59,670 bases of DNA from an uncultured Acidimicrobium sp. (GCA_964532575.1 CAZHIN010000001.1:21294-80963); one strand, 5' to 3'; counted from the first letter of the stretch, positions 16,292-51,444 are shown. Translations and numbers: made by a program. Notes: a model not told the origin generated them from the letters alone.

Positions 16292-16523
16292 GCAATACCA
16301 ACACGCTCACAACTGCCATGCCGAGCGCGCCAACAATTGCGCCGAGCAACAGGCCTATGCCCGTGCCAACCGAACATTGGCCAGCACACTGCAAATCGAC
16401 AAGCGCGAATCCGATCGCAGCACCTGCAGCACCTGCCACGAGCACGCCGACGAACGCGACAACACGAGCGAGCGGCGATGGTAAAGCGGACAGGGCGCGC
16501 TTGTCGTTCGGGGTTTGGCGCAC
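16254..16523 (-). CDS. Small predicted two-TM membrane protein (hypothetical)
   Basis: Two hydrophobic helices (VVAFVGVLVAGAAGAAIGFALV and GIGLLLGAIVGALGMAVVSVLVL) flank a CAGQC loop. A GTG start at 16523 is more plausible than the track ATG at 16571. The opposite-strand ORFs here look like shadow frames. Confidence 0.4.
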   Translation of the reverse strand: MRQTPNDKRALSALPSPLARVVAFVGVLVAGAAGAAIGFALVDLQCAGQCSVGTGIGLLLGAIVGALGMAVVSVLVLRAVGEWRELDDN

Positions 16524-20541: not shown

Positions 20542-21039
20542 ATGCGAAGCGCGCTGGTATTAAATGCAACATACGAGCCGCTGAGTGTTGTCTCAGCGCG
20601 ACGCGCTGTGTGTTTAGTGTTGTCGGAGAAAGCCGAGATCATTGAAGACGATGGAACGCAAATCCATTCGGAGACAATGAGTATTCCTGGTCCGCTCGTG
20701 ATTCGACTGCGCTACATGGTCAAGGTTCCGTATCATCGTCGCACAGCGCTCTCTCGCCGTGCGGTGTTTGCTCGAGATGATCACCGCTGTCAATATTGCG
20801 GCGGAGTCGCTGACTCGATTGATCATGTGATGCCACGCTCGCGCGGGGGTATGCATATTTGGGAAAATGTGACGGCTGCATGTCGCCCGTGCAACTTGCG
20901 CAAGCGCGACAGAACTCCTGAAGAGGCAGGAATGCTGCTGGAGTCACAGCCTCTTGCACCGCGCGAATTGGCGTGGATCACTGTGTCGGTGGGACGTGTG
21001 CCCGACGAGTGGAAGCAGTATCTTGCCGCTGCATCCTGA
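20542..21039 (+). CDS. HNH endonuclease family protein
   Basis: 165 aa. CQYCGG...IDHVMPRSRGG...WENVTAACRPCNLRK (HNH/Zn motif). Confidence 0.85.
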   Translation: MRSALVLNATYEPLSVVSARRAVCLVLSEKAEIIEDDGTQIHSETMSIPGPLVIRLRYMVKVPYHRRTALSRRAVFARDDHRCQYCGGVADSIDHVMPRSRGGMHIWENVTAACRPCNLRKRDRTPEEAGMLLESQPLAPRELAWITVSVGRVPDEWKQYLAAAS

Positions 21040-33729: not shown

Positions 33730-35970
33730 ATGAACACTCCTCGATTATCCAAGCGTCCTGCAACCGCTGCAGAGGTGCAACTTGCAACAGAATTGTTGGC
33801 AAAACGTGCCCGCACCAATGTGTCGCTCGCACAATTTACGACTTACCGGGTGGGCGGCAACGCTGCGCTACACGTGCATGTTGAATCGTTGGATGATCTC
33901 GAGGCGATCAGCGCAGTGTTGGCACAGGTTGATCTGCCGCTCTTGGTTATTGGGCGAGGAAGCAACATGTTGATTGCCGACACTGGGTTTCAAGGTTTGG
34001 CAATTACTTTTGGCAGCTTTTTGGAATACATCGATCTGCCCGACCCGCACGACGACGATCAGGACGGAATTGTTGTTGAGCCAATTGCGCTGTTTGGTGG
34101 ATCGGTACCGTTGCCCGTAGCCGCTCGCCAAAGTGTTCACCGCGGATTGACAGGTTTTGAATGGGGCGTTGGTGTTCCGGGCACGATTGGCGGTGCAGTG
34201 CGCATGAATGCTGGCGGTCATGGCTCGGACATGGCTTCGTCACTTGTTTCGGCCCGAATTTTTCATCTGTTGCGGGGTGTTGAAGCTCATGTGGATGCCG
34301 TGGATCTTGGTCTGAGGTTTAGAGGTTCGGCAATCGCCGATCATCACGTGGTCTTGTCGGCGACACTCAATTTGGCTTGGGCGTCCGATCGCCAGGCTGC
34401 AGAAAATCAGTTGTCAGAGATCGTCAAGTGGCGCAGAGAAAATCAACCCGGTGGTCAAAATGCTGGATCGGTGTTCGTTAATCCAGTGCCTGGCGAGGTT
34501 TCTGCAGGTGCATTGATCGATCAGATTGGGATGCGTGGATTTCGCATTGGATCGGCACATGTCTCGGAGAAGCATGCCAACTTTATTCAAGCAGATGAAG
34601 GCGGTTTGGCATCGGATGTAGTGCAGGTAATGGCAGAAATTCGTCGTCGGGTCAAAGACTCAACGGGGTACGACTTGCGAAGCGAGATTCGACTTGCAGG
34701 TTTTGATGCTGCGATGGATCCAACGCTGATCGATGTACTGACCAGCGAATCGGATACAAGCGTGGCAACAGTGCGGCTCGAACATATTTTTGATCGCAAC
34801 TCAAGTACATCGATTGTTTCAGACACATCAATTCCAATCTCGATCTTGTCGTCTCCCGATTTTCAAGACCCGCTAGATGTGCCAACAGAAGTGCTTGATG
34901 AGTTGAGCGCGGTGTTCAGTGATGAGACATCTACAACACAAGAGCAACCGGTGATTGCTTCAGTAACCGACATAAAAACCAGAGAAGTAATGATGCCACT
35001 CGAGACGTCAGACAAGACGCACGCGGGCACGTCAACGAGCGCACCTAGTCGTGTAGTGATTATTGACGAGGACTTTCGTAATCCATCGGAAAGTGATTTT
35101 CCATCGGACACTGCTTCGCAATCGGTTCATCAAGCCCCGACTTCGGTGCGCGTTCTGATCACTGATGATGATGTAGCACAAGATCAGGATGCCGAAATTA
35201 TCGTTGGTACGCGATGGAGTGATGGAAGTAAATCGCGCAAAATACAAAATTTGCTCAAGGGCAAGCTGGTGGGTGGCAATAAGCGCAAGCGTTTTGTACT
35301 GGCAGTTTTGGGTTTCGTTGTTTTTGTTGGTGTTGTACTCGTTGTTTTGGCGTCGCCACTCGTTGCAGTAAGAACCGTGCAAGTTGAGGGCGCGAAATAT
35401 GCAGATGCTGCATTGGTGCGAAGTGTTTCCGACTCGCTCAAGGGCAAGTCGGTATTGACAGTTGATACGAATACTGCTCGCGAGAGATTGGAGAGCGACC
35501 CGTGGGTAAAGTCGGCGCGGATCTCGACAAGTTTGCCAAGTCGGGTATTGATCCAGATCAACGAGCGCATTCCTGTGGCGTGGTTTCTTGGCGTCGACAA
35601 TCGGGCACGCGTGATTGATGAAGATGGACTGGTGCTCAGTGTTGTTGAAGGTCGACCAACCCAGTACATGTGGATTGAGGGGACAGGACCCAATTTGACG
35701 GCGGGGGCGAGCTCGGCTGCTGGCTACCGGGCGGCTGGCCAACTGGCGATGTCATTGCCAAGCGAACTTGCGCCAATGGTCAAACATCTTGGAGTGGCAG
35801 GGTCTGAGCAGATTACGATGACCCTCAAAAATGGCACTGTTATCAACTTTGGGGCTCCTGTTGATATGCGCAACAAACTCGTCAATGTGGTGGTTTTACT
35901 GCGCCGTCAAGATGTCAATTCAATCATCAGCATCGATGTCTCTACGGGGACCCCAGTGGTGCAGTCATAA
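33730..35970 (+). CDS. murB: Fusion protein: UDP-N-acetylenolpyruvoylglucosamine reductase (MurB) - long disordered linker - TM - FtsQ/DivIB (POTRA) domain
   Basis: A single uninterrupted 746-codon ORF. aa ~20-325 is MurB (YRVGGNA, VIGRGSNML, GTIGGAVRMNAG, NAGSVFVNP, SAGALIDQIGMRGFRIGSAHVSEKHANF). aa ~326-520 is acidic and Ser/Thr-rich. aa ~521-545 is a TM helix. aa ~546-746 is a POTRA/FtsQ-like domain in the slot just before ftsZ. Confidence 0.85.
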   Translation: MNTPRLSKRPATAAEVQLATELLAKRARTNVSLAQFTTYRVGGNAALHVHVESLDDLEAISAVLAQVDLPLLVIGRGSNMLIADTGFQGLAITFGSFLEYIDLPDPHDDDQDGIVVEPIALFGGSVPLPVAARQSVHRGLTGFEWGVGVPGTIGGAVRMNAGGHGSDMASSLVSARIFHLLRGVEAHVDAVDLGLRFRGSAIADHHVVLSATLNLAWASDRQAAENQLSEIVKWRRENQPGGQNAGSVFVNPVPGEVSAGALIDQIGMRGFRIGSAHVSEKHANFIQADEGGLASDVVQVMAEIRRRVKDSTGYDLRSEIRLAGFDAAMDPTLIDVLTSESDTSVATVRLEHIFDRNSSTSIVSDTSIPISILSSPDFQDPLDVPTEVLDELSAVFSDETSTTQEQPVIASVTDIKTREVMMPLETSDKTHAGTSTSAPSRVVIIDEDFRNPSESDFPSDTASQSVHQAPTSVRVLITDDDVAQDQDAEIIVGTRWSDGSKSRKIQNLLKGKLVGGNKRKRFVLAVLGFVVFVGVVLVVLASPLVAVRTVQVEGAKYADAALVRSVSDSLKGKSVLTVDTNTARERLESDPWVKSARISTSLPSRVLIQINERIPVAWFLGVDNRARVIDEDGLVLSVVEGRPTQYMWIEGTGPNLTAGASSAAGYRAAGQLAMSLPSELAPMVKHLGVAGSEQITMTLKNGTVINFGAPVDMRNKLVNVVVLLRRQDVNSIISIDVSTGTPVVQS

Positions 35971-37241: not shown

Positions 37242-37913
37242 GTGAACCAGATACAAATTGCGGCGCGTGTTGCCGAGTTGCGCGAACGAATTGCGCGTGC
37301 TGGGGGTATCGATGTTGGCATTGTGGCTGTTACAAAAAACTTCGGCGTTGATGCGTGGAACGATGCAAAATTTGCGGGGTGTGAGGCCGTCGGCGAAAAC
37401 TACGCGCAGGAACTGATTGCCAAATCGCACTTGGTTGCACGACCAGACAGATTGCCTGTGCATTTCATTGGGCAATTGCAAACCAACAAAATTAAGTCGT
37501 TGTTTGAGATTGTTGATGTGTGGCAGTCGGTGGATCGGGCTTCGGTTGTGACCGAACTGGCCAAACGCCAACAGGCACGCAACTCTGGCGGTCGATGCGA
37601 AATACTGTTGCAAGTCAATACCACCAGAGAAAATGGGAAGGGTGGATGTGATCCGACCGAGGTAGAGGCTCTGGCTCGTCAAGCCCGTGAGGGGGGACTC
37701 ACAGTGAGCGGATTGATGACGGTTGGCCCAACTGATATGGATCCAATAAAGACACGTATTGCATTTCGTTTGCTCAAGCAGATGGCGACCGACCTTGGGG
37801 TCGCCCAATTGTCAATGGGGATGACGGCAGACGTGGAAATTGCGATTGAAGAGGGGTCGACCTTGGTGAGGGTGGGAACAGCGCTATTTGGCCAACGTCC
37901 ACAATCGAACTAG
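37242..37913 (+). CDS. YggS/YlmE family pyridoxal-phosphate homeostasis protein
   Basis: 223 aa. Alanine-racemase-N fold with VAVTKNF (PLP Lys), HFIGQLQTNK, LSMGMT. Sits in the conserved slot downstream of ftsZ. Confidence 0.88.
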   Translation: MNQIQIAARVAELRERIARAGGIDVGIVAVTKNFGVDAWNDAKFAGCEAVGENYAQELIAKSHLVARPDRLPVHFIGQLQTNKIKSLFEIVDVWQSVDRASVVTELAKRQQARNSGGRCEILLQVNTTRENGKGGCDPTEVEALARQAREGGLTVSGLMTVGPTDMDPIKTRIAFRLLKQMATDLGVAQLSMGMTADVEIAIEEGSTLVRVGTALFGQRPQSN

Positions 37914-37936
37914 TCAGTTGTTGTAACCTTTATCTG

Positions 37937-38494
37937 ATGTCAATGTTTCGACGCGCAATGGACTATCTCGGTCTCGGACCAGATGACGCCTATGACGACT
38001 ACGACGCTTCCATTGCGGTAGAGCGTCCGGCTGCTCGCGGTCCACGTGGTGCGTCAACTGTGCGGCGTCCACAACCACAGCAATTTGATGATGACTACGA
38101 AGACGAAGTGGATGATGATTACGAAGAGGCACCACGTCCTCGTCCAACCCGTGCAACATCGCAGCGCGCCCAAGCCCAACGCGATGACTCAAGCGTGCAA
38201 CTGCGACCAAGCACTGGCGCAAGCACCGGGGGCACTGTGCGCAAATTGACACAGACAACTGCTGAACCAGTTGCTATTCGTCCGACTCGCTACGACCAAG
38301 CAAAAGATATTGCAGATTTGCTCAGGTCTGGACAGCCTGTTGCGATGAATATCGGCGCAGCAGATTCGGAAATCGCGCGACGTTTAATTGATTTTGCAAG
38401 TGGAATGACGTATGGCATCGAAGGCAAAATGGAAAAGATTGCACCAGGTGTATTTTTGCTCACACCTCGTGGCACGCGCGTTATTCGTGACTGA
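37937..38494 (+). CDS. sepF: Cell division protein SepF
   Basis: N-terminal amphipathic MSMFRRAMDYLGL, an acidic linker, and a conserved C-terminal core (RPTRYDQAKDIADLLRSGQPVAMN...FLLTP). Confidence 0.88.
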   Translation: MSMFRRAMDYLGLGPDDAYDDYDASIAVERPAARGPRGASTVRRPQPQQFDDDYEDEVDDDYEEAPRPRPTRATSQRAQAQRDDSSVQLRPSTGASTGGTVRKLTQTTAEPVAIRPTRYDQAKDIADLLRSGQPVAMNIGAADSEIARRLIDFASGMTYGIEGKMEKIAPGVFLLTPRGTRVIRD

Positions 38495-38738
38495 AATTCT
38501 TTGCTCTCTTGTAGGTCTCTACACGTACCTGATTATCGGACGAGTGATTCTTTCGTGGTTTCCAGCCAACCCAAACGGGCCACTTGGTCAGGTTGTGCGA
38601 GTTGTGATGATGCTGACCGATCCGGTGCTACTGCCAGTTAGGCGAGCATTGCCCCTTGCTGGTCCACTTGATCTTTCGCCCCTTGTGGTGTTGCTGTTTT
38701 TACAGATCGTTGTGCAAGGCATGTTGCTTCGCTGCTAG
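38487..38738 (+). CDS. YggT/YlmG family membrane protein
   Basis: About 83 aa starting at GTG 38487 (overlaps the sepF end by 8 nt). YLIIGRVILSWFP is the typical YggT motif. Sits in the sepF-yggT slot. Confidence 0.75.
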   Translation: MTEILCSLVGLYTYLIIGRVILSWFPANPNGPLGQVVRVVMMLTDPVLLPVRRALPLAGPLDLSPLVVLLFLQIVVQGMLLRC

Positions 38739-38781
38739 GCATCAAGCCAGTAGCACGCATTTGCCTTTACAATGACGCACC

Positions 38782-39261
38782 GTGACATATCCAAAGGTTG
38801 ATCCTCAACCGAACTTTCCGGCACTCGAAAACGAGACGCTCGCTTTCTGGGCTGCTGACGGCACCTTTCAGGCGTCCATCGATCAACGTGACGCTGGCAA
38901 AAATGGTGAGAACGAATATGTCTTTTATGATGGGCCGCCGTTTGCCAACGGCTTGCCACACTATGGTCACTTGCTCACCGGGTTTGTTAAAGATGCGGTT
39001 CCCCGATATCAAACGATGCAGGGCAAGCGAGTCGAGCGTCGTTTCGGATGGGATTGCCACGGGTTGCCAGCCGAGGCAGAAGCAGAGCGTCAATTAGAAA
39101 TTTCTGGCCGACAAGCGATCACCGATTTTGGTATCGACAAATTTAATCAGTACTGCAAAGAGTCGGTGCTGCGCTACACCAGCGACTGGGAGCGATATGT
39201 AACGCGTCAGGCCAGGTGGGTTGACTTTGCTATGGATTACAAAACTCTCGAGGTGTCGTAA
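38782..39261 (+). CDS. ileS: Isoleucyl-tRNA synthetase, N-terminal fragment (159 codons, ends at an in-frame TAA)
   Basis: Type-2 IleS N-terminus with the HIGH motif ([13 protein letters not shown]). It is in the same reading frame as the next ORF, separated only by TAA at 39259-39261. Confidence 0.85.
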
Positions 39262-41880
39262 ATGGAAAGTGTGATGTGGGCATTTAAGACACTGTGGGAC
39301 AAGGGTTTGATTTACGAAGGGTTTCGTGTGTTGCCATATTCGTGGGCACTCGAGACGCCATTATCCAATACCGAAACGCGGATGGACGATGCCTACAAGC
39401 AGGTGCAAGACCCGGCATTGACCGTTGCATTTGTACTTGAAACTGGCGAATCGTTGTTGGCGTGGACGACGACGCCGTGGACATTGCCGAGCAACCTTGC
39501 ACTTGCGGTTGCTCCTGATGTGAGTTATGTGCGAGTGCGTCATAACGGAACTGTGTACCTGTTGGCCGAAGCACGACTTGGTGCATATGAAAAGGAATTA
39601 GAAGGCGCCGAGGTGCTTGACACCGTGCTTGGATCGGCATTAGTCGGTCGCACATACACGCCGATGTTCTCGTACTTTGCCGATCAGCCTGGCGCGTTTC
39701 GGGTGATCGCAGGAGATTTTGTAACAACCGAGGATGGCACTGGAGTTGTGCATCTTGCGCCGGGCTTTGGCGAAGACGACCAACGCGTGTGCAGTGAAAA
39801 CGGTATTGGGCTTGTGGTGCCGGTTGACAGTCGCGGATTATTTACGAGCGAAGTGCCCGACTTTCAAGGGATGTTGGTGTTTGATGCCAACCCGTTGATT
39901 ATTCGCGAACTGAAATCACGCGCAGTGGTGTTGCGTCACGAAACATACGACCACGCTTATCCACATTGTTGGCGTACCGGAAAGCCGCTGATCTATAAAG
40001 CGGTGAGCTCGTGGTTTGTCAATGTGACGGCTGTAAAAGAGCGCATGGTTGCATTGAATGAGCAGATCACGTGGGTGCCCGAGCACCTGCAACACGGAAG
40101 TTTTGGTAAGTGGCTCGAGAACGCGCGCGATTGGACAATTAGTCGCAACCGCTTTTGGGGTTCACCAATTCCGGTGTGGCGCAGCGATGACCCTGCCTAT
40201 CCGCGCATCGATGTGTATGGCAGTCTTGCCGAACTTGAGCGCGATTTTGGTGTCACGGTGACCGAACTGCATCGTCCTGTTGTTGATGACTTGGTGCGTG
40301 CGAACCCGGACGACCCAACAGGCAAGTCAATGATGCGCAGAGTGCCCGAAGTGCTCGACTGTTGGTTTGAGAGCGGATCAATGCCGTTTGCGCAAGTGCA
40401 TTATCCATTTGAAAATCAGGAATGGTTTGATCAGCACTATCCAGGCGACTTCATTGTTGAATACATCGGTCAGACGCGTGGCTGGTTCTACACGTTGCAC
40501 GTGTTGGCTACAGCGTTGTTTGATCGTCCCGCTTTTTCAACATGTGTCAGCCACGGAATTGTGTTAGGTGACGATGGTGCGAAGATGTCAAAGAGTCTGC
40601 GCAACTATCCAGACCCGATGAATGTGTTCGATACCTATGGCGCTGATGCAATGCGTTGGTATCTGCTTTCGTCTTCAATTTTGCGTGGATCAGATTTTGC
40701 AGTGACCGAAGAGGGTATTCGCGACACTGTGCGACAGGTGATGCTGCCATTGTGGAACAGCTGGTATTTTTTATCGCTCTATGCCAACGCAGAGTCAATG
40801 ACTGGAGAAGTGCGCTACGACTCGACAAACGTGATGGACAGATACGTGTTTTCGAAATTGAAGCGTTTGATTGAAGACACAACCGTGTCAATGGACCAAT
40901 ACGACATTTTTAGTGCGTGTCAGCAAGTGCGATCGTTTTTGGATGTGTTGACCAACTGGTACATACGTCGCAGTCGCGATCGTTTTTGGAAAGGCGACAA
41001 AGATGCGATTGACACATTGCACACGGTGTTGCACGTGCTTACGCGCATTGCCGCGCCGCTGCTGCCATTAACAACAGAAAAGATTTATAAAGAACTCACG
41101 GGCGAGAGAAGCGTGCACCTTGAGGATTGGCCTGACGCGAGCATCGTGCCATCTGACAACCAACTAGAAGTGGTGATGGATCAAGTGCGCGATGTATGTT
41201 CGACAACGTTGTCGTTGCGCAAAGTGCACTCGCGCCGTGTGCGTCTGCCACTTGCCGAACTTACTGTTGCTTCGCCACTGGCCAATGCATTGCAATCTTT
41301 CGTCTCAATCATCACCGATGAAGTCAACGTGCATCACGTGACGCTGACAACCGAACTTGGAAAAGTAGCCAAGCATGAATTGCAATTAATTCCTGCTGCG
41401 CTCGGGCCTCGCCTTGGCGCAAACACGCAAAAAGTGATTGTGGCGGTGAAGAAAGGTGATTGGTCGATAAATGGTGACGAGGTGATCGCCGGCGGCGTTG
41501 CACTCGAGCCACATGAGTTTCAGGTGAAATTGGTGGCCGCTGTTGGTGACACCGACTCGGTAGCAAGTGCAGCCTTGGCTGACGGTCAGGGAATTGTGTT
41601 GCTCGATATTGAATTGACCGAAGCATTGTTGGCCGAGGGCGCTGCTCGAGACATTGTGCGAATGGTGCAACAGGCTCGGCGAGAAGCAGGGTTGGCGGTT
41701 TCCGATCGCATTGTGCTCACTCTGGGATTGTCGGCGTTGCTGCAGTCGCAAGTTTCCCAATTTGAGACATATATCGCTTCTGAGACCCTGGCACAGCGGA
41801 TTGAGTGGGTTTCAGGCCTCGAGCCAACTGGAGATTTGGACGGGAATCCCGTCCATATAGGTGTCGATCAAGTACGGTAA
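39262..41880 (+). CDS. ileS: Isoleucyl-tRNA synthetase, remainder (872 codons: CP1 editing, KMSKS, anticodon-binding domains)
   Basis: Begins MESVMWAFKTLWDKGLIYEGFRVLPYSW, contains KMSKS (GAKMSKSL). Together with the upstream fragment it gives about 1032 aa, the normal type-2 IleS length. Confidence 0.9.
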   Translation: MESVMWAFKTLWDKGLIYEGFRVLPYSWALETPLSNTETRMDDAYKQVQDPALTVAFVLETGESLLAWTTTPWTLPSNLALAVAPDVSYVRVRHNGTVYLLAEARLGAYEKELEGAEVLDTVLGSALVGRTYTPMFSYFADQPGAFRVIAGDFVTTEDGTGVVHLAPGFGEDDQRVCSENGIGLVVPVDSRGLFTSEVPDFQGMLVFDANPLIIRELKSRAVVLRHETYDHAYPHCWRTGKPLIYKAVSSWFVNVTAVKERMVALNEQITWVPEHLQHGSFGKWLENARDWTISRNRFWGSPIPVWRSDDPAYPRIDVYGSLAELERDFGVTVTELHRPVVDDLVRANPDDPTGKSMMRRVPEVLDCWFESGSMPFAQVHYPFENQEWFDQHYPGDFIVEYIGQTRGWFYTLHVLATALFDRPAFSTCVSHGIVLGDDGAKMSKSLRNYPDPMNVFDTYGADAMRWYLLSSSILRGSDFAVTEEGIRDTVRQVMLPLWNSWYFLSLYANAESMTGEVRYDSTNVMDRYVFSKLKRLIEDTTVSMDQYDIFSACQQVRSFLDVLTNWYIRRSRDRFWKGDKDAIDTLHTVLHVLTRIAAPLLPLTTEKIYKELTGERSVHLEDWPDASIVPSDNQLEVVMDQVRDVCSTTLSLRKVHSRRVRLPLAELTVASPLANALQSFVSIITDEVNVHHVTLTTELGKVAKHELQLIPAALGPRLGANTQKVIVAVKKGDWSINGDEVIAGGVALEPHEFQVKLVAAVGDTDSVASAALADGQGIVLLDIELTEALLAEGAARDIVRMVQQARREAGLAVSDRIVLTLGLSALLQSQVSQFETYIASETLAQRIEWVSGLEPTGDLDGNPVHIGVDQVR

Positions 41881-41903
41881 AGCGCCAAGTTCGAGAGGGA
41901 AAT

Positions 41904-42932
41904 ATGCCATCAGCATCAGCAAAGAAAAAGGCTCTAGCCAAGAAGAAAGCCGATCTGGCTAAGAAAAAGGCTCTAGCCATGAAAAAGGCTCAAGCCAAGA
42001 AGAAATCCGCACAAAAGGCTCTAGCCAAGAAGAAAGCCGATCTGGCTAAAAAAAATGCAGCCGCCAAAAAGATCGCTGCACAAAAGGCTCTAGCCAAGAA
42101 GAAAGCTGAACTGGCAAAGAAAACTGCCGCGCAGAAAAAACTAGCAGCGCAGAAAGCACAAGCACTGAAGAAGGCCGAGTTGGCAAAGAAGCTTGCTGCC
42201 AAAAAAGCCGCTGATGCGGCACGCAAGAAGGCGATGCGAGAAAAAGAAATTGAGCGCAAAAAAATTGCTGCTCAACGCAAAAAAGATTTGGCATTACAGC
42301 AAAAGATGAAGGCCATTGCAGCCAAAGAGGCTGCTAAGGAAAAGGCGCGTGTCGCTGCAGAAAAGTTGGCTCTCAAACTTGCCAAAGAAGCCGAGAAGAT
42401 TCGTCTCCGAGAAGAAAAAGAAGCTGCTCGACTTGCGTTGATCGCAGAAAAAGAGGCAGCACGCGAGGCCGCTCTGCGCGCTAAGCGCAAACCAGAGCCT
42501 CCACCACGTCCACCGATCATCAAGACCGAATTTGCCGACGGTATTCAGGCGACAAAAGATTTTGATCTGAAGTTCCTGGCTGGTCAACGCGAGATGATGC
42601 TGGAAAAGAAGGCTGTGCTCTTGCGCCAGGCTCTGCGACTTGACGACGAGGCCAACTCGCTCATTCAAGACGTGGAAATGGGCGATGTGCAATTTGACGA
42701 AGAGGGCGGCGAAGGCGACACCATGGTTGTTGAGCGCTCTCGCGATCTGATGCTCTCGGCACAGGCGAGGCAGATTGTTGAAGAATTGGATGCCGCACTC
42801 GAGCGAATCAAGACAGGTGAGTACGGCTATTCGGTGCACAGCGGTCTGGCGATTCCGCGCGAGCGTCTCAAGGCGATTCCGGAAACCACCGAGTCGGTTC
42901 TTGAGCGTGTCGGTGGCATCGGCCGTCGATGA
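41904..42932 (+). CDS. Histone H1-like Lys/Ala-repeat domain fused to a DksA/TraR-like C-terminal domain (DdbA-like)
   Basis: ATG 41904 is preceded by GAGAGGGA. About 200 aa of AKKKA/LAKK repeats are followed by a coiled coil and the DksA/TraR-type tail IKTGEYGYSVHSGLAIPRERLKAIPETTESV. ileS-X-lspA-rluD synteny matches what I recall for Streptomyces. Confidence 0.7.
   Translation: MPSASAKKKALAKKKADLAKKKALAMKKAQAKKKSAQKALAKKKADLAKKNAAAKKIAAQKALAKKKAELAKKTAAQKKLAAQKAQALKKAELAKKLAAKKAADAARKKAMREKEIERKKIAAQRKKDLALQQKMKAIAAKEAAKEKARVAAEKLALKLAKEAEKIRLREEKEAARLALIAEKEAAREAALRAKRKPEPPPRPPIIKTEFADGIQATKDFDLKFLAGQREMMLEKKAVLLRQALRLDDEANSLIQDVEMGDVQFDEEGGEGDTMVVERSRDLMLSAQARQIVEELDAALERIKTGEYGYSVHSGLAIPRERLKAIPETTESVLERVGGIGRR
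41910..42480. repeat. In-frame low-complexity coding repeats (Lys/Ala/Glu codons)
   Basis: An exact 35-bp duplicate aaggctctagccaagaagaaagccgatctggctaa occurs at 41928-41962 and 42015-42049, with a partial third copy from 42083. The long antisense shadow ORFs here are artefacts of this composition. Confidence 0.7.
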
Positions 42933-43465
42933 TCGACGCCAATCCAGAACCAATTCATGACCCGCAGTCGGGCAGCCGATTTATGGTGAGAGCAACGCGC
43001 TTGAGTCTGTTGATATCGGCATTCGTCGTGTTGTTAGATCAGTCGCTCAAGGCTTGGGCACTTCGAGATCTTGCCGATGGTCGCGTGATTCATGTGGTTT
43101 GGACGATGCAGTTCAATCTGACATACAACCGAGGAATGGCGTTTTCACGAGGCACTGGCATCGGTCCGATAATTGGAGTCATCGGCTTGGTCGTTGTGGT
43201 GTTGTTGCTGCTCTCGTTGCGCAGAGCCGACAATGCCCTCACACGCGTGGCAACGGGTTTGATTATTGGTGGGGCAATCGGAAACATTGTCGATCGCCTG
43301 TTTCGTGGGTCGGGTTGGATGCGTGGGGCTGTTATCGACTTCATAGATTTTCAATGGTGGCCAGTTTTTAACGTTGCTGACATGGCAATCATGATCGGAG
43401 CCGCGACAATGATTGTGGCAATGATGAAGTACAACTCTCAAGTCAATCGAACGGATGTCCACTAG
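42929..43465 (+). CDS. lspA: Lipoprotein signal peptidase (signal peptidase II)
   Basis: 178 aa, four TM segments, NRGMAFS and FNVADMAIMIGA motifs. The start overlaps the upstream stop (ATGA). Confidence 0.9.
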   Translation: MIDANPEPIHDPQSGSRFMVRATRLSLLISAFVVLLDQSLKAWALRDLADGRVIHVVWTMQFNLTYNRGMAFSRGTGIGPIIGVIGLVVVVLLLLSLRRADNALTRVATGLIIGGAIGNIVDRLFRGSGWMRGAVIDFIDFQWWPVFNVADMAIMIGAATMIVAMMKYNSQVNRTDVH

Positions 43466-44379
43466 TGCTGAACGAAATTATTCCTGCAGCGCTCAATGAC
43501 CAACGTTTGGATCGCATCGTTGCATTGATTGCCGATGTCAGTCGTGCCTCTGCGGCGTCGCTCATCGTGGCCGGTGGAGTGGTGGTCGACGGCGTGCGTG
43601 CCGAGACGGGCAAGACCAAGATTGCTGAAGGTCAGTCAATCGTGATTGACACTGCATTGCTGCCAAAAAAAGAGTTGCCAACTGCCGATGCAACCGTGAT
43701 CTTGGATGTTGTCTACGAAGACGCTGATGTCGTGGTGATCAACAAGCGCGCGGGCCTCGTTGTTCATCCGGGTGCTGGCAATCCCACCGGCACCATGGTC
43801 AACGGCGCACTTGCTCTGTTTCCCGAAATGGCATCTGCTGGCGATCCACTGCGTCCTGGCGTTGTGCATCGGTTGGATGCTGGCACTACAGGGCTGATGG
43901 TGATGGCAAAAACGCAGGTGGCCTACGAGGCGTTGGTCGAGGCGTTGTCGAAGCGCGAAGTCAAGCGCACGTATTTGGCACTTGTGTGGGGGCACCCAAC
44001 TGTTTTGTCGGGAACTATCGATGCTCCCATCGGTCGAGATCAGAAAGATCCGACGCGCATGGGTGTTGTTGTTGATGGCAAGGCTGCGCGAACGCGTTTT
44101 GAAGTGAAGAAGAAGTTTGATCTGCCGTTGCCGAGCTCATTGGTCGAATGCAATCTAGAAACTGGCAGAACGCACCAAATCAGAGTTCATCTCGAATCGA
44201 TTGGCCATCCTGTCGTCGGTGACTCAACATACGGTGGTGCGCGCAGTTCGCTGTCGGCACCACGCCCAATGCTGCACGCTGCGCAATTAGCATTCGTGCA
44301 TCCGGTGAGCGCACAATCAATGTCGTTTGAAGCCGACATGCCCGACGACATGAAAGCATTGCTTGCACGTTGTAGCTAA
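43465..44379 (+). CDS. rluD: RluA-family 23S rRNA pseudouridine synthase (RluD-like)
   Basis: S4-like N-terminus and the catalytic motif HRLDAGTTGLMVMAK. lspA-rluD synteny. Confidence 0.9.
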   Translation: MLNEIIPAALNDQRLDRIVALIADVSRASAASLIVAGGVVVDGVRAETGKTKIAEGQSIVIDTALLPKKELPTADATVILDVVYEDADVVVINKRAGLVVHPGAGNPTGTMVNGALALFPEMASAGDPLRPGVVHRLDAGTTGLMVMAKTQVAYEALVEALSKREVKRTYLALVWGHPTVLSGTIDAPIGRDQKDPTRMGVVVDGKAARTRFEVKKKFDLPLPSSLVECNLETGRTHQIRVHLESIGHPVVGDSTYGGARSSLSAPRPMLHAAQLAFVHPVSAQSMSFEADMPDDMKALLARCS

Positions 44380-44399
44380 ATGCACTATCAGCAATTGAT

Positions 44400-44846
44400 T
44401 TAGTGATGTAGCTGTGGCCAAGGCGATGTGCCTTTTGCAGCCGAAGCGATTTTGGCCAACGTGTAATCGTCGAGGTGTTCACGCATATGTTCGCCGGCAA
44501 CATTCCAAATAGCCAGCAACACACAATGACCTTCGTGGTCGCAAGAACCGTCTTGGTGTGGTTTTCCAAAATCGCCAAGACTGATCGGTCCGTCTGCAGC
44601 AGCAATTATTTGTGAGAGCAAAATTTCTTCTGGTGGTCGAGCAAGCGTGTATCCACCACCAACACCGCGTTTGGATTTGACGAGTCCTGCACCCTTGAGC
44701 ACTAAAAGAATCTGCTCAAGGTAAGGCTGTGGAAGTGCGGTGCGCGTAGCAATGTCACGCACCGAAGTTGGGCCTGGCTCACCTTCGTGGAGGGCAAGAG
44801 ACAATAGAGCGCGACATGCGTAGTCGCCCCGAGTAGATACACGCAC
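44400..44846 (-). CDS. Rrf2 family transcriptional regulator
   Basis: 148 aa. MRVSTRGDYACRALLSLA and a winged HTH (LVKSKRGVGGGYTLARP). Confidence 0.88.
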   Translation of the reverse strand: MRVSTRGDYACRALLSLALHEGEPGPTSVRDIATRTALPQPYLEQILLVLKGAGLVKSKRGVGGGYTLARPPEEILLSQIIAAADGPISLGDFGKPHQDGSCDHEGHCVLLAIWNVAGEHMREHLDDYTLAKIASAAKGTSPWPQLHH

Positions 44847-44864
44847 GGTTGTAGTGTAGATCGC

Positions 44865-45974
44865 GTGTCAGATCCAACGCTTCCTCAGTATTCGAGAGGT
44901 TGCATCTCCAGCATTATTCCAAGCCTGCTCGGGCCGCGGGGTACTGACACGGTGCCTGCGTGGATGCCTCAGGTAGTGCAGGGTGCAAACCAAGTTGTAT
45001 TGCTTGTTATCGATGGTCTTGGCTGGCATCAGTTACAAAGCAACATTGTGCATGCACCAACTCTCGCGTCAATGCAGGGTGGAATGATCACGACCGTTGC
45101 TCCATCAACAACAGTGACGGCGTTGACGTCAATCGCAACGGGTTTGACACCAGGTGAACACGGTCTCATGGGGTATCGCATGGACATGGGGCGCCATGTG
45201 ATGCAGATGTTGCGTTGGGGCGATGAGAAGGGTGATCTGCGCACGACCTATCCACCAGAGATGGTGCAACCGTGCCCTCCGTTTATGGGAGCGTCAGTGC
45301 CAGTGTTGAGCAAAGCAGAACTTGAAGGTTCTGCATTTACTGAAGCGCACCTTCGGGGCTCACGACCGATGGGATGGCGATCGTCGTCGAGTATTGCAGT
45401 GCAGGTGGGGCAGTTGTTGCGCGCAGATCAAAAATTTATTTACGCCTATTACGACGGTGTTGACAAAATTGCTCACGAGCGTGGCTTTGGCGAGTACTAC
45501 AACGCAGAACTTCGTCAGGCAGACCGCTTGGTGGCAGATGTGCAGAACCAACTCACGCCTGGGAGTGTGTTGATCGTGACTGCCGATCACGGTCAGGTGC
45601 ACATTGGTGATGCATCGATCACGCCACCGCGAGAATTATTAGATCACGTGGCCTATCAGTCGGGCGAGGGCAGGTTTCGTTGGCTACACGCGCGCAATGG
45701 TGCAACGCAGTCGCTGTTTGCAACTGCCAAGGATCTTTACGGCGATGTCGCATGGGTCGTCACTCGCGACGAGACGATTGACAACGGCTGGTTTGGTCCG
45801 CGTGTGACAGACGTTGCGCGCAAGCGACTCGGCGATGTTGCTCTGGTGCCGTTTGAAGACGTGAGTTTTCATGAGCCAAATGACACTGGCCCGTATCAAC
45901 TGGTTTGTCGACATGGTTCGCTGACAGCAGCAGAAATGCATGTTCCGCTGTTGGCAACTGCATGTCAAGCGTGA
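44865..45974 (+). CDS. Alkaline phosphatase superfamily protein (type I phosphodiesterase/nucleotide pyrophosphatase-like)
   Basis: VLLVIDGLGWHQL, APSTTVTALTSIATGLTPGEHG, TADHGQ are metal-ligand motifs of the AP superfamily. The start is uncertain: GTG 44865 lies only 18 nt from the divergent Rrf2 start, and ATG 44964 is an alternative. Confidence 0.75.
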   Translation: MSDPTLPQYSRGCISSIIPSLLGPRGTDTVPAWMPQVVQGANQVVLLVIDGLGWHQLQSNIVHAPTLASMQGGMITTVAPSTTVTALTSIATGLTPGEHGLMGYRMDMGRHVMQMLRWGDEKGDLRTTYPPEMVQPCPPFMGASVPVLSKAELEGSAFTEAHLRGSRPMGWRSSSSIAVQVGQLLRADQKFIYAYYDGVDKIAHERGFGEYYNAELRQADRLVADVQNQLTPGSVLIVTADHGQVHIGDASITPPRELLDHVAYQSGEGRFRWLHARNGATQSLFATAKDLYGDVAWVVTRDETIDNGWFGPRVTDVARKRLGDVALVPFEDVSFHEPNDTGPYQLVCRHGSLTAAEMHVPLLATACQA

Positions 45975-45986
45975 GATAATGCAATC

Positions 45987-46463
45987 ATGACTGAAGTAAT
46001 AGATGACGGACCGGGCGAACTACCAGGAGTAAATCCGGAAGCAATACCGAATGAAACAGTGACTGCGCCAGCGAAGGTGATGCGCATCGGGTCGATGATC
46101 AAACAGTTGCTCGATGAAGTGCATTCGATGACAATGGATGGACCAGCGCGAGAGCGTCTCGCCGAGATTTATGAGCGGTCAATTGTTGAATTGACGGAAG
46201 CCCTCTCTCCCGACTTGGCTGAAGAGTTGCGGATGCTGTCGCTGCCATTTCGCGATGGAGTAACTCCATCCGACAGTGAATTGCGTGTTGCCAAAGCCCA
46301 ACTTGTTGGTTGGCTCGAAGGTCTGTTTCACGGAATTCAGGCCACATTGTTTGCACAGCAATTGGCTGCAAATCAGCAACTCAATCAAATGCGCCAATTG
46401 CCCAGTGGTCCTGGTGGATCCACCTCCCCAGAAATAGCGGACCGCCCGGGCACGTATCTCTAG
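45987..46463 (+). CDS. bpa: Bacterial proteasome activator (Bpa/PafE, DUF2587) family
   Basis: 158 aa, helical. KVMRIGSMIKQLLDEV...AQLVGWLEGLFHGIQ, with a C-terminal GTYL resembling the GQYL 20S-docking motif. Confidence 0.72.
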   Translation: MTEVIDDGPGELPGVNPEAIPNETVTAPAKVMRIGSMIKQLLDEVHSMTMDGPARERLAEIYERSIVELTEALSPDLAEELRMLSLPFRDGVTPSDSELRVAKAQLVGWLEGLFHGIQATLFAQQLAANQQLNQMRQLPSGPGGSTSPEIADRPGTYL

Positions 46464-46521
46464 CCAGTCGTACTTGAGGTTGGCGAAAATCACGAGTAAG
46501 CACCACGGGCAAACACCCCAC

Positions 46522-46528
46522 TGATAAT
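46522..46528 (+). promoter_or_regulatory. Possible extended -10 element (TGATAAT) upstream of dnaE
   Basis: TGATAATCT lies 63 nt upstream of the dnaE GTG. The same GATAATCT octamer occurs in the putative mraZ promoter (21911-21918). No clear -35. Confidence 0.25.
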
Positions 46529-46590
46529 CTCTCCTCTCCAACGCGGCTTTTTGGCCACAATCATCGGACGAAACACGAAAGGGGATTCCA

Positions 46591-49500
46591 GTGGGAGACT
46601 CGTTTACCCACTTGCATGTCCACACCGAGTTTTCGATGTTGGACGGCGCGTCGCGACTTGACGAATTAGTAGCGGCGGCAGTTGCCGACGGTCAACCTGC
46701 CTTGGGTATGACCGATCACGGCAACATGTATGGAACTCTCGATTTTTATCGGCAGTGCAAAGAGCAAGGTATCAAGCCGATTATTGGCACAGAGGCATAC
46801 ATGGCTCACGAGCACCGCTCCGAGCGTCCATCTCGGCGGGGCAGAATTGATGACTCGGGTGGCGAAACAGAGTCGGGTGGCAAGGTGTACTACCACCTCA
46901 CGCTGCTGGCAGAAAACAATGTTGGCTATAAAAATTTAATTCAGTTGTCGAGCCGTGCATTTTTGGAGGGTTACTACTACCAACCGCGCATTGACTGGGA
47001 ATTGCTGCACGAACACCACGAAGGTTTGATTGCGACAAGCGGATGTCTAGGCGGACACGTGTTGCAGCGGTTGATGAAGGGCGACATTGCGGGAGCGCAC
47101 GAATGCGCGGGCAGACTGCAAGACATTTTCGGCAAAGATAATTTTTTTATTGAAGTGCAAGATCACGGACTTGCGGAACAAAAGCGCACCAATCCACTCC
47201 TGATTGAACTGTCGCGCAAGATTGGTGCTCCTTTGCTTGCTACAAACGACACCCACTACACGCATCGCGAAGACCATGCGGCCCATGACGCATTGTTGTG
47301 TGTGCAAACGGGCTGCACAATGTCAGACCCAAACCGGTTCAAGTTCGAAGGTGCCGAACATTATTTGAAGAGCGCACAAGAAATGCAATGGCTATTTCGT
47401 GATATTCCCGAGTCATGCAGCAACACACTGTGGATCGCCGAGCGCGCCAATATCGAAATCGAGTTTGGAAACCCCGTGCTTCCAAACTTTGAGTTGCCAG
47501 CCGGGTTTACAACAGACGGTGAATATCTCCATCACCTAGCGCTTCAAGGGGCCAAAGAGCGATGGGGTGAAAAGCTTCCATCGGCAGTGACTGAGCGCCT
47601 CAATTTCGAACTACAAACGATTGAGCAAATGGGTTTCAGTTCTTATTTTTTGATCGTGTGGGACATGATTCGCTATGCGCGCCACAATTCAATCCGCGTG
47701 GGCCCTGGTCGTGGCTCGGCTGCAGGTTGTGCCGTGGCGTATTGCCTTCGCATCACCGATCTAGACCCGATCAAGTATGACTTGTTGTTTGAAAGATTTC
47801 TCAATCCAAGTCGCGTCACGATGCCCGACATTGACATGGACTTCGATTCGCGTTATCGCGACCAGATGATTCGATATGCCTCGGATAAATATGGTCGTGA
47901 TCACGTTGCTCAGATCATCACATTTGGCACCATCAAAGCACGCAACGCTGTTCGCGATGCAGCACGCGTGCTGGGTAAGCCGTATCTCGTAGGCGACAAG
48001 ATTGCCAAACTGATGCCACCTGTGATCATGGGCCGCGACACTCCTCTCAAGTTTTGTCTAGAGCCAGATCCGAAAGACGAACACAAAGATGGATATCGCG
48101 CTGCCGCCGAACTGCGAGCGTTGTATGAATCGGACAGCGAAGTGAAAGAAGTTGTTGACGTCGCTCGAGGTCTCGAGGGGCTTAAGCGCAATGTGGGCAT
48201 TCATGCTGCTGCTGTAGTGATCACAAAAGAGAAGTTGACCGAGTATTTGCCGATTCAGCGCAAACCTGAGCAGGGTCAAAACCCGCAAGATGCACCGGTG
48301 GTGACGCAGTTTGAAATGCACGGAGTTGAGGCACTTGGACTACTCAAAATGGACATCTTGGGCTTGCGCAACCTTGATGTGCTCAGCGATGCAATGGCCA
48401 TGATCCGCCAATTTCGTGAGAGCAACTTTGATGTTGACAAACTGCCTATTGACGACAAAGCAACGTTTGAGTTGCTTGCGCGCGGCGACACTATTGGTGT
48501 TTTTCAACTCGAGAGCACCCCGATGCGTGCCTTGCTGCGGTCATTGATGCCAGAGACATTTGAGCATCTTTCTGCAGTGCTTGCCTTGTATCGCCCAGGA
48601 CCAATGGGCGAAAACATGCACAACGACTTTGCTGACTACAAAAACAAGCGCAAAGAAAACCAATATTTCCATCCCGATGCTGCCGAACTCTTGGGCGATA
48701 CCTATGGGTTGATGATCTACCAAGAGAGCGTGATGCGCGTGGCGCAAAAGTTTGCTGGGTATTCGCTCGCCGAGGCAGACACATTGCGAAAAGCGTGTGG
48801 CAAAAAAGACAAAGTTGCTATGGCCGAACAGCGCGCCGGGTTTGAGGCGGGTTGTATCAAGTTGGGCTACGGCGAGGAATTGGGTACAACTATTTTTGAC
48901 ATGATCGAAAAGTTTGCCGACTATGCGTTTGCAAAAAGTCATGCATATGGTTACGGCCTGATCTCGTATCAGACTGCATATTTGAAAACCCATTTTCCAG
49001 TTGAGTACCTTGCGTGTTTGCTCACCAGCGTCAAGACCAATTACGACAAAGCGGCCGTCTATTTATCTGATGCGCGCATGAACAACATTGTTGTGCTGAC
49101 CCCCGATATCAATCTTTCTGGTGTCAACTTTGAGCCAGTGCTCGATGGTGATGTTCGCAAAATTACGTTTGGCCTCTCGGCTATTCGCAATGTGGGTGAA
49201 GGTCTCGCGACAAAAGTCGTTGAGCACCGCAACACGCATGGACCATTTGAGTCTTTTTATGACTTTGCCGAACGAGTGCCAACAGACGTGCTCAACAAGC
49301 GAGCAATTGAGTCGCTCATCAAGGCTGGAGCATTTGACAAACTTGGTCACCCACGCAAAGGATTACTCGCGTCGTTCATGGTGATCATCGATACAACATT
49401 GCAGCGTCGCGCAGAAAAAGACCAAGGTGTGATGAGCCTCTTTGGTGAACTGGAGGGCACGGAAGGCGGGTTTAGCGAGCGCCAGTCGATTCCGGATTTG

Positions 49501-50124
49501 CACTTTGAAAAATCAGAGCAACTGAAATTTGAAAAAGAAATGCTCGGTTTGTATGTATCAGATCATCCGCTCATGGGAATAGAGGGAGCCCTTCGCCGAC
49601 GAGTTGATTGTTCTATCCCAGAGGCACTCGAATCTGCTGATGGCGCGTTTATGACAATCGGGGGCATTGTCAATCAGGTCAATCGGCGTTACACCAAAAA
49701 AGGTGACCAGATGGCAACATTTATGTTGGAGGATTTACAGGGCGTTATTGAAGTCACTGTTTTTCCTAAGACGCTCGAGAAATATGGCCATCAACTTGCC
49801 GACGACATGCTGATCTCGGTGCGAGGCAGAATGGACGCGCGCGATGAAACAAAAATTGGATTTATGGCCACCGAAATAATTGTTTTGGAGGGTTTGCGAT
49901 CTTCGCAGGACTCATTGCACCTGAGATTCAATGCCCACGCGATCACCGAGACACTGATTGCCGATTTGCAGGCAGTGTTGAAAGAACATCCTGGCGATGC
50001 ACCTGTATTTCTGCATCTATCAGATGACAAAGCAGTAAGCCTTGGCGCGCAATACACGGTCAACCTTGATCGAGTTATGGGCCAACTACGAGCATCATTT
50101 GGGGACGCCGCAACGATTGCATAG
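46591..50124 (+). CDS. dnaE: DNA polymerase III alpha subunit
   Basis: 1177 aa. PHP domain (FTHLHVHTEFSMLDG), polymerase core (PDIDMDF), OB fold at the C-terminus. Confidence 0.98.
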   Translation: MGDSFTHLHVHTEFSMLDGASRLDELVAAAVADGQPALGMTDHGNMYGTLDFYRQCKEQGIKPIIGTEAYMAHEHRSERPSRRGRIDDSGGETESGGKVYYHLTLLAENNVGYKNLIQLSSRAFLEGYYYQPRIDWELLHEHHEGLIATSGCLGGHVLQRLMKGDIAGAHECAGRLQDIFGKDNFFIEVQDHGLAEQKRTNPLLIELSRKIGAPLLATNDTHYTHREDHAAHDALLCVQTGCTMSDPNRFKFEGAEHYLKSAQEMQWLFRDIPESCSNTLWIAERANIEIEFGNPVLPNFELPAGFTTDGEYLHHLALQGAKERWGEKLPSAVTERLNFELQTIEQMGFSSYFLIVWDMIRYARHNSIRVGPGRGSAAGCAVAYCLRITDLDPIKYDLLFERFLNPSRVTMPDIDMDFDSRYRDQMIRYASDKYGRDHVAQIITFGTIKARNAVRDAARVLGKPYLVGDKIAKLMPPVIMGRDTPLKFCLEPDPKDEHKDGYRAAAELRALYESDSEVKEVVDVARGLEGLKRNVGIHAAAVVITKEKLTEYLPIQRKPEQGQNPQDAPVVTQFEMHGVEALGLLKMDILGLRNLDVLSDAMAMIRQFRESNFDVDKLPIDDKATFELLARGDTIGVFQLESTPMRALLRSLMPETFEHLSAVLALYRPGPMGENMHNDFADYKNKRKENQYFHPDAAELLGDTYGLMIYQESVMRVAQKFAGYSLAEADTLRKACGKKDKVAMAEQRAGFEAGCIKLGYGEELGTTIFDMIEKFADYAFAKSHAYGYGLISYQTAYLKTHFPVEYLACLLTSVKTNYDKAAVYLSDARMNNIVVLTPDINLSGVNFEPVLDGDVRKITFGLSAIRNVGEGLATKVVEHRNTHGPFESFYDFAERVPTDVLNKRAIESLIKAGAFDKLGHPRKGLLASFMVIIDTTLQRRAEKDQGVMSLFGELEGTEGGFSERQSIPDLHFEKSEQLKFEKEMLGLYVSDHPLMGIEGALRRRVDCSIPEALESADGAFMTIGGIVNQVNRRYTKKGDQMATFMLEDLQGVIEVTVFPKTLEKYGHQLADDMLISVRGRMDARDETKIGFMATEIIVLEGLRSSQDSLHLRFNAHAITETLIADLQAVLKEHPGDAPVFLHLSDDKAVSLGAQYTVNLDRVMGQLRASFGDAATIA

Positions 50125-50167
50125 ATGACCCCTGCCGAAACCGAAGTTTTGCTGGCAGACTGTAGGT

Positions 50168-50822
50168 ATGTCAGTTGTAGTCGAGACGCGTGATTGTGGG
50201 TCTCTGACCGATGCCGAACTTGATGAGTTGGCAGCAATGGGTGGGGCCTTCGGTATCGGCCCAGTTTCGAAAGCCAAAGACGAGTGGGTGTTGTTTACAA
50301 GCGCTCGAATTGACGGCAAGATTCACGGTTTTACCTTCTCCACACTGGAGCGCATTGGCGGCACGCCTTGCGTGTTGTTGGGGATGATGAGCGTCAAAGT
50401 CTGGAAAGCTCGACATGGTTCTCAAGGGTCTGATGGGCGAGGCATATCACCGCGCACTGATGGCGTTTCCCGACGAAGACGTTGTTGTCGGCTCACGATT
50501 TGCGTCGGCAAGTGGTCTCGAAGCTTTTAAGTCGCTGACTGAAATGATTCCTCGGCCAGACCACCGCGCCGTTGGTGAAGAGCGCGCGTGGGGTAAGCGT
50601 TTGGCTCGTCGCTTTGGTGTCGAGGCATCGTATGACGACCAGAGTTTTACCGTCAAGGTCAATGGTCAAAGTGGTTTTCTTGATCACGAGACGTTGAAGC
50701 CAGAAAAAATTGATGCCGATGTTGCTGCACAGTTTGCAACAGCAACCAAGGCCAAGAGTGGCGTCGTAATTGTGCATGGTTGGACAATGGCCGAGTCGCT
50801 GGCCAAACTCGGCAAACACTAA
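50168..50822 (+). pseudogene. Hypothetical gene apparently disrupted by a +1 frameshift near 50390-50400
   Basis: The ORF 50168-50530 reads plausibly up to ...TPCVLLGMMSVK, then turns Arg/Cys-rich and junk-like. The +1 frame is open from 50391 and reads plausibly to 50822 (MVLKGLMGEAYHRALMAFPDEDVVVGSRF...). The two halves join to about 215 aa. Confidence 0.5.
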
Positions 50823-50832
50823 GCAGATAATT

Positions 50833-51444
50833 TTGCAGTTCGCCGACGTTGTACGCGGTCGGCGCATGACTCGCGCCTTTTCAAAACAGCCAGTCGACTC
50901 GGCGTTGATCACACAGATTGTTGATCTTGCATCTCGTGCGCCGTCGGCAGGCAAAACGCAAGGCTGGCATGTGGTGATCATTACCTCAAGCGACACAGCA
51001 AAGTTTTGGGATGACACGCTTGCAACTGAAAAGCGAGAAGGATTTCGTTGGAAGCAGTTGCTGGACGCGCCAGTAATTGCATTGGTATTTGCTGATCCCT
51101 TGGCATATGTAGAGCGCTATGCCGAGAACGATAAAGCGCACACAGGTTTGGGTACGAGTGCCGATGCATGGCCAACCCCGTATTGGACGGTGGACGCTTC
51201 GTTTGCAGCAATGACGATGTTGCTTGCCGCTGAGGACGCAGGGTTGGGGGCATTATTTTTTGCGGTATTTAATGGCGAGCAACAGTTGCGAAAGAGGCTG
51301 CTCGTTCCTGAAACGTTGCAATTGATTGGCGCGATAGCGCTCGGTTGGCCTGATGACGGCGAGCAGGTGCAACAACATCGAGGCGTGAGCGCTGATCGGG
51401 CTCGTCGCAATGCCGAACAGATTATTCACCTCAACGGATGGTGA
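50833..51444 (+). CDS. Nitroreductase family protein
   Basis: FADVVRGRRMTRAF, SRAPSAGKTQGW and GALFFAV are nitroreductase-fold motifs. TTG 50833 is the first plausible start after the upstream stop. Confidence 0.8.
   Translation: MQFADVVRGRRMTRAFSKQPVDSALITQIVDLASRAPSAGKTQGWHVVIITSSDTAKFWDDTLATEKREGFRWKQLLDAPVIALVFADPLAYVERYAENDKAHTGLGTSADAWPTPYWTVDASFAAMTMLLAAEDAGLGALFFAVFNGEQQLRKRLLVPETLQLIGAIALGWPDDGEQVQQHRGVSADRARRNAEQIIHLNGW

Follow-up and report, generated by a model that had tools for sequence, protein, structure and literature searches.

Is the isoleucyl-tRNA synthetase gene, ileS, of an uncultured Acidimicrobium sp. really carried as two abutting reading frames, or does its interruption exist only in one assembled record? 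The question is raised by a 59,670-nt stretch of DNA (GCA_964532575.1 CAZHIN010000001.1:21294-80963), referred to here as the window, in which a type-2 ileS of 3,099 nt (38782-41880, plus strand) is split by an in-frame TAA. A first-pass annotation of the window had described this stop and left three options for it: a sequencing or assembly error, a nonsense pseudogene backed up by a second ileS, or a naturally split enzyme made by termination and re-initiation. We confirm the TAA itself, and we conclude that the feature is most likely not biological. Because the stop is absent from other assemblies of the same species and lies within a tight patch of odd changes, it is most likely an error. 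The elements on which the question turns are the following.

38782..39261, plus strand: 5' ileS piece, 159 codons and the TAA, with a GTG start and HYGH (a HIGH-type motif) at 38959-38970.
39250..39255, plus strand: Shine-Dalgarno (SD)-like GAGGTG, 6 nt before the ATG; GACGTG in all conspecifics.
39259..39261, plus strand: in-frame TAA, standing at the invariant Tyr160 codon.
39262..41880, plus strand: 3' ileS piece, 872 codons, whose ATG start is the native Met161 codon, with KMSKS at 40582-40596.

Rereading the sequence, we found the layout to be as annotated: the two open reading frames (ORFs) lie in one frame with only the TAA between them, the HIGH-type motif falls in the 159-aa piece and KMSKS in the 872-aa piece, and GAGGTG stands where it had been placed, its GAGG core lying 8 nt upstream of the ATG at 39262. 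In codons, window 39229-39267 reads gct atg gat tac aaa act ctc gag gtg tcg TAA ATG gaa. The 159-aa piece equals residues 1-159 of an intact 1032-aa isoleucyl-tRNA synthetase (IleRS) from the same species, P0001, save for N151M and D157E, and the 872-aa piece is 100% identical (rounded) to residues 161-1032 of that protein.

The stop is not shared by any relative that we could compare. A full-length search returned hundreds of intact 1032-aa orthologues, including P0001 (100% identical, rounded), whose contig (L001, from Logan SRR22372529) reads TAC and matches the window at 99.62% identity over 5.5 kb. ENA supplied two more independent assemblies of the species, ERZ27280321 (99.05%) and ERZ925109 (99.62%), which carry AAC...GAC...TAC at the corresponding sites, and the 1032-aa ileS ORF is intact in all three conspecific assemblies. 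The stop is accordingly what the first-pass annotation had proposed, a single-base change (C>A) of a Tyr codon. Across the loci of GTDB-representative species, Tyr160 and Asp157 are kept in 80 of 80 and position 151 is N, D or H; the consensus DYKTLD..YMESV given in the first-pass annotation is present as [N/D/H]DYKTLD..YMESV in all 80 related species. A pattern specific to the TAA allele had no match in JGI metagenome contigs, and the same pattern with the four altered positions left free matched 7 JGI contigs, all of them AAY/GAC/TAY. When the 159-aa piece was used as a query, no database protein was found to end at ...EVS, and the matches of 155-170 aa were contig-end partials running past the Tyr. 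Two 872-aa proteins, P0243 and P0244, were considered as a recurrence of the split and rejected, as they are gene calls at contig starts (DNA ...GACGTGTCGTACATGG) with an intact TAC upstream; a collection of 5.8 billion proteins contained neither 159-aa nor genuine 872-aa IleRS fragments. Taken as a test of inheritance, these comparisons place the TAA in 0 of 3 conspecific assemblies, 0 of 80 species loci and 0 of 7 JGI contigs. The TAA allele is private to one assembly.

The stop does not stand alone. The first-pass annotation had not seen that it is one of four private transversions within 29 nt, or that the GAGGTG is itself the product of one of them.

39233..39261, plus strand: lesion 1, four window-private transversions in 29 nt, identified by comparison with conspecifics, species loci and JGI contigs.

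Two adjacent changes, 39233 A>T and 39234 C>G, turn Asn151 (AAC) into Met (ATG); 39252 C>G turns Asp157 (GAC) into Glu (GAG) and, in the same step, GACGTG into GAGGTG; and 39261 C>A turns Tyr160 (TAC) into TAA. Against the conspecific contig L001, the whole of ileS shows 7 differences, namely the 4 patch transversions and 3 scattered transitions. The 3,070 nt outside the patch thus hold just 3 transitions, with one Lys/Arg change, and in this comparison we saw no sign of relaxed selection along ileS outside the 29-nt patch.

Several possible origins of the patch were considered and rejected. For a template switch at a quasi-palindrome, k-mer and repeat searches gave no nearby direct or inverted template for the four changes; the A at 39261 does raise the match of an inverted repeat (39253-64 / 39281-92) from 10/12 to 11/12, yet that repeat predicts A, not G, at 39252. 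A new hairpin over the start codon, suggested by a 57-nt fold of -17 (mutant) versus -11.5 kcal/mol, is lost in an 89-nt context (-18.2 versus -17.8), and 29% of random sets of four substitutions fold as well as the mutant or better. Import by recombination from a divergent lineage would require a donor, and none of the three altered residues occurs in any of 88 relatives.

To place the patch against the divergence of the window as a whole, we took a census of private differences, defined as window positions that differ from all covering conspecific contigs. The comparison rests on 33 conspecific contigs (98.7-99.9% identity) that cover window positions 1-56461, with 52,917 nt lying under at least two independent contigs, and it yielded 89 private substitutions and one private indel. 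The 83 substitutions outside the ileS patch and a second lesion described below comprise 57 transitions (69%), 25 transversions and one site with two alternative bases; 60 are synonymous (72%), 22 non-synonymous and 1 intergenic. Strains that diverge under purifying selection ordinarily show such a pattern. By contrast, all four changes in the ileS patch are transversions and all four are non-synonymous, a combination whose fraction in the background is 0.084, which raised to the fourth power gives 5e-5. The probability that at least 4 of 89 uniformly placed substitutions fall in any 29-nt span is 0.0012. Since there is no private difference besides the ileS patch in 37688-50405, the patch is younger than any neutral change in these 12.7 kb; it has not passed through the filter of selection. 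Extended to the remaining conspecific contigs (~290 kb), the census revealed no coding sequence with a private frameshift or nonsense change; what it did find were indels, either in frame or intergenic, and patches resembling recombination. Separately, a nitroreductase gene carries a private patch at 51024-51042 (plus strand), where 5 substitutions, most of them synonymous (Ala, Val>Thr, Glu, Gly), fall within 19 nt; the patch resembles natural variation or a short tract of recombination, and its allele was not seen in the sampled relatives.

The single private indel belongs to a second lesion, 11 kb downstream of ileS.

50395..50410, plus strand: lesion 2, AAAAA shortened to AAA after 50395 (a 2-nt deletion), 50405 C>A and 50410 G>T (Arg>Leu), all within 16 nt.

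The frameshifted ORF that the first-pass annotation had reported at 50168-50822, and had taken as a reason to suspect sequence error, is real in the record and traces to the 2-nt deletion in a run of five A at about 50395. It disrupts a gene at ~50129-50822 (plus strand) of 218 aa as called in conspecifics, or 231 aa from stop to stop, which has 94-100% protein identity across species and no Pfam match. Lesion 2 is likewise private, five conspecific contigs reading AAAAA...GGC...CGC, and it is of the same style as the ileS patch. We also considered whether the window is generally error-ridden and rejected this, as the suspicious overlaps between ORFs (17.8-22.7 kb, 42.9 kb, 44.8 kb) trace to over-extended starts or to upstream regions that are conserved, and not to disruption. 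Since these other overlaps were over-extended starts, we regard the window as good sequence of a genuine strain with two local, destructive, multi-base lesions.

The identity of the interrupted gene is clear. With the stop read as Tyr, it encodes a 1032-aa type-2 (eukaryote-like) isoleucyl-tRNA synthetase whose best matches among solved structures are human cytoplasmic IleRS (2.6e-246), Priestia megaterium IleRS2 (8c8u, 5.6e-226) and Thermus thermophilus IleRS (1ile, 3.1e-199), with type-1 chains far weaker at 1e-74 to 1e-104 (8c9e 1.3e-103; Staphylococcus aureus 1ffy 1.5e-97). Pfam domains on P0001, 100% identical (rounded) to the window protein, are PF00133 (tRNA-synt_1), PF08264 (Anticodon_1) and PF19302 (DUF5915). 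The product is an IleRS2, its full-length similarity to IleRS2 and eukaryotic cytoplasmic IleRS exceeding that to IleRS1 and both HIGH and KMSKS being present. The named relatives in public records assign the window to freshwater acIV Ilumatobacteraceae (Acidimicrobiia). At the entry to CP1 (39340-39360), the CWRCETP of more distant Acidimicrobiia and other Actinomycetota is replaced by SWALETP in the acIV clade, and both cysteines of the CP1 zinc knuckle are lost from the IleRS of this clade.

In its surroundings, ileS lies downstream of ftsZ-ylmE-sepF-yggT at the end of the dcw cluster, with only ~40 nt (38739-38781) between yggT and the GTG start. We looked for Rfam families, T-box included, and for tRNAs across the window and detected none, and ileS seems to lack its own leader and to share a transcript with the division-cluster genes. 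Conspecifics differ in small ways nearby: sepF carries a 3-nt in-frame indel polymorphism at window 38142, and two conspecific assemblies have an 18-nt insertion (GCGCAGAAAAAACT...) near the 5' end of a 348-aa gene downstream of ileS (window 42128-42146). Further upstream, at 33730-35970 (plus strand), MurB domains (FAD_binding_4, MurB_C) and a POTRA_1 domain of FtsQ type share one 746-aa ORF, an apparent murB-ftsQ fusion that is found in all conspecific contigs. A stand-alone 165-aa HNH endonuclease ORF (20542-21039, plus strand) lies between acyl-CoA dehydrogenase and LplA-like genes, in conspecifics too, just upstream of mraZ and the dcw cluster.

Our comparisons make it probable that the TAA and the patch around it are a local sequence or assembly artefact, the first of the options in the first-pass annotation. 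We favour this explanation because the allele is private, because four clustered non-synonymous transversions fall at conserved residues, and because a similar lesion lies nearby. Its privacy, clustering and unnatural composition and the second lesion are observed; from them we infer that a technical cause, as opposed to a real recent mutation, is most likely. The error would be a local one, introduced during sequencing, assembly, polishing or later handling of the record, for instance where a stretch rests on a single read of poor quality or where damage on one template became fixed; lesion 2 would have arisen by the same kind of technical error. The organism would then make a normal 1032-aa IleRS with Asn151, Asp157 and Tyr160, and the adjacency of stop, ATG and GAGGTG would be a coincidence. 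In Actinobacteria, IleRS2 is reported to be the only housekeeping IleRS, and the occurrence of two ileS genes together has been reported only for Bacillaceae and one mupirocin producer (10.1101/2022.02.09.479832). Given that IleRS2 is the sole housekeeping enzyme, loss of ileS should be lethal. Several observations weigh on the other side. The coincidence is not a trivial one, as an ATG directly follows the stop in only 12 of 404 (3%) stop-creating single substitutions of ileS, and just 1 of the 48 substitutions possible in the upstream 16 nt makes a core SD tetramer at a working distance, which is the one observed. In addition, the rest of the window (its last 3 kb lying outside the comparison) looks accurate, with natural private differences and no other gene seen disrupted, so that an unusual local error process must be assumed; and the case for error would be an inference from assembled sequences rather than from a read-level view.

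The stop-start layout would have another explanation if the patch were real. A very recent multi-nucleotide mutation could have turned ileS into two cistrons in this one strain, with an active IleRS assembled from two pieces. Translation would terminate at the TAA and re-initiate at the native ATG next to it, with assistance from the new GAGG 8 nt upstream, and the predicted products, a 159-aa piece with the first part of the Rossmann fold and HIGH and an 872-aa piece with the remaining catalytic core, CP1 editing domain, KMSKS and anticodon-binding region, would associate non-covalently. Had the patch arisen as one genuine multi-nucleotide mutation, no layout of another kind could have survived in an essential gene; selection for viability, provided that the strain is viable, would thus account both for the conserved Met161 codon directly after the stop, found at 3% of possible nonsense sites, and for the presence of the sole SD-core-making substitution among the 48 neighbouring ones. 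Stop/start overlaps or abutments are common in the window (e.g. 9417/9420, 24142/24145, 27530/27533, 42929/42932), so translational coupling is routine here; many genes, in the window and in the conspecific loci L105, L113 and L089, overlap by ATGA or GTGA. Class I synthetases reportedly tolerate some splits, as with the artificially split E. coli IleRS and MetRS from Schimmel's laboratory. We nevertheless regard a working two-piece enzyme as very unlikely. The comparison of orthologues, which the first-pass annotation had itself proposed as a check on a naturally split IleS, finds the TAA in no relative and in no conspecific, even at 99.05-99.62% identity. Neither N151M nor D157E, the latter at an invariant residue, has an evident role in a split; as a single patch made up wholly of transversions, the four changes differ from the natural substitutions here; and the twin lesion wrecks another conserved gene 11 kb away. 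The SD-like hexamer is present as described, but as a start signal for the second piece it says little, since core SD tetramers (GGAG, GAGG or AGGA, 3-11 nt upstream of the start) precede just 6 of 49 called genes in the window and the three conspecific loci named above, about what chance would give. The break also falls in the first half of the Rossmann fold (placed by homology, not computed), outside CP1 or a lineage-specific insert, where known splits lie, and a deleterious split is not expected at consensus frequency in a very large planktonic population.

A real nonsense allele need not be functional, and we consider this version unlikely rather than implausible. The record could have captured a minority, damaged or dying lineage, for example from the genome of a single cell or along a strain path of low frequency in the assembly graph, or it could hold a fresh pseudogene with a second ileS elsewhere, as the first-pass annotation had suggested. 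Outside the lesions the window does behave as a genuine distinct strain, with its 83 natural-looking private substitutions, and a single damaged or mutagenised template would be consistent with a pair of destructive multi-hit lesions in 53 kb; at 16515-17798 the window also holds a gene for a dinB-type translesion polymerase. Yet ileS shows no decay beyond the patch, with 3 transitions in 3,070 nt against a conspecific, and a lethal allele would not be expected to become the consensus of a metagenome bin. A backed-up pseudogene in particular sits poorly with the reported restriction of two ileS genes to Bacillaceae and a mupirocin producer, ileS2 standing alone in Actinobacteria (10.1101/2022.02.09.479832).

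What is at stake differs between these explanations. If the patch is an artefact, this assembly contains, within 53 kb, at least two lesions, local and multi-base, that look like gene disruption, and calls of split genes or pseudogenes made from it would not be trustworthy without read support. If, on the other hand, a viable strain did live on the two-piece enzyme, this would be a rare case in nature of an essential class I synthetase being split within its catalytic fold and expressed by translational re-initiation; such a newly arisen split, caught at its origin, would bear on how split and modular synthetases arise.

Comparison with known systems helps to place the locus. In full-length homology, in HYGH and KMSKS and in Pfam domains, the window gene resembles the known IleRS2 enzymes of P. 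megaterium (8C8U), T. thermophilus (1ILE) and Streptomyces griseus; it departs from them in the TAA at codon 160 and, together with its acIV clade, in lacking the two zinc-knuckle cysteines of CP1. Coupling by termination and re-initiation at abutting or overlapping stop and start codons is established for E. coli trpE-trpD and trpB-trpA. The TAA-ATG abutment in ileS, with its upstream purine-rich element, in a genome with many ATGA and GTGA overlaps, recalls these junctions, whereas they part distinct conserved genes and the ileS junction cuts one conserved gene, in a single assembly. In Aquifex aeolicus, the split of LeuRS is a fixed trait encoded by two separate genes. This natural split of the alpha-beta LeuRS lies in the large leucine-specific domain (PMC3643597). 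Like the product of ileS here, that enzyme is an editing synthetase of class I encoded as two pieces, one carrying HIGH and the other KMSKS; in ileS, by contrast, the break falls within the first half of the Rossmann fold, the two pieces adjoin in the same frame and no relative shares the break. The remaining comparison is with artefacts that mimic pseudogenes in draft genomes and metagenome-assembled genomes. A tight patch of four transversions is not the commonest type of error, and the accuracy of the rest of the window is also unlike such cases. In the other respects the locus resembles them: the change is private to one assembly, it hits an essential and otherwise perfectly conserved gene, a neighbouring gene carries a homopolymer-length error, and there is no sign of filtering by selection.

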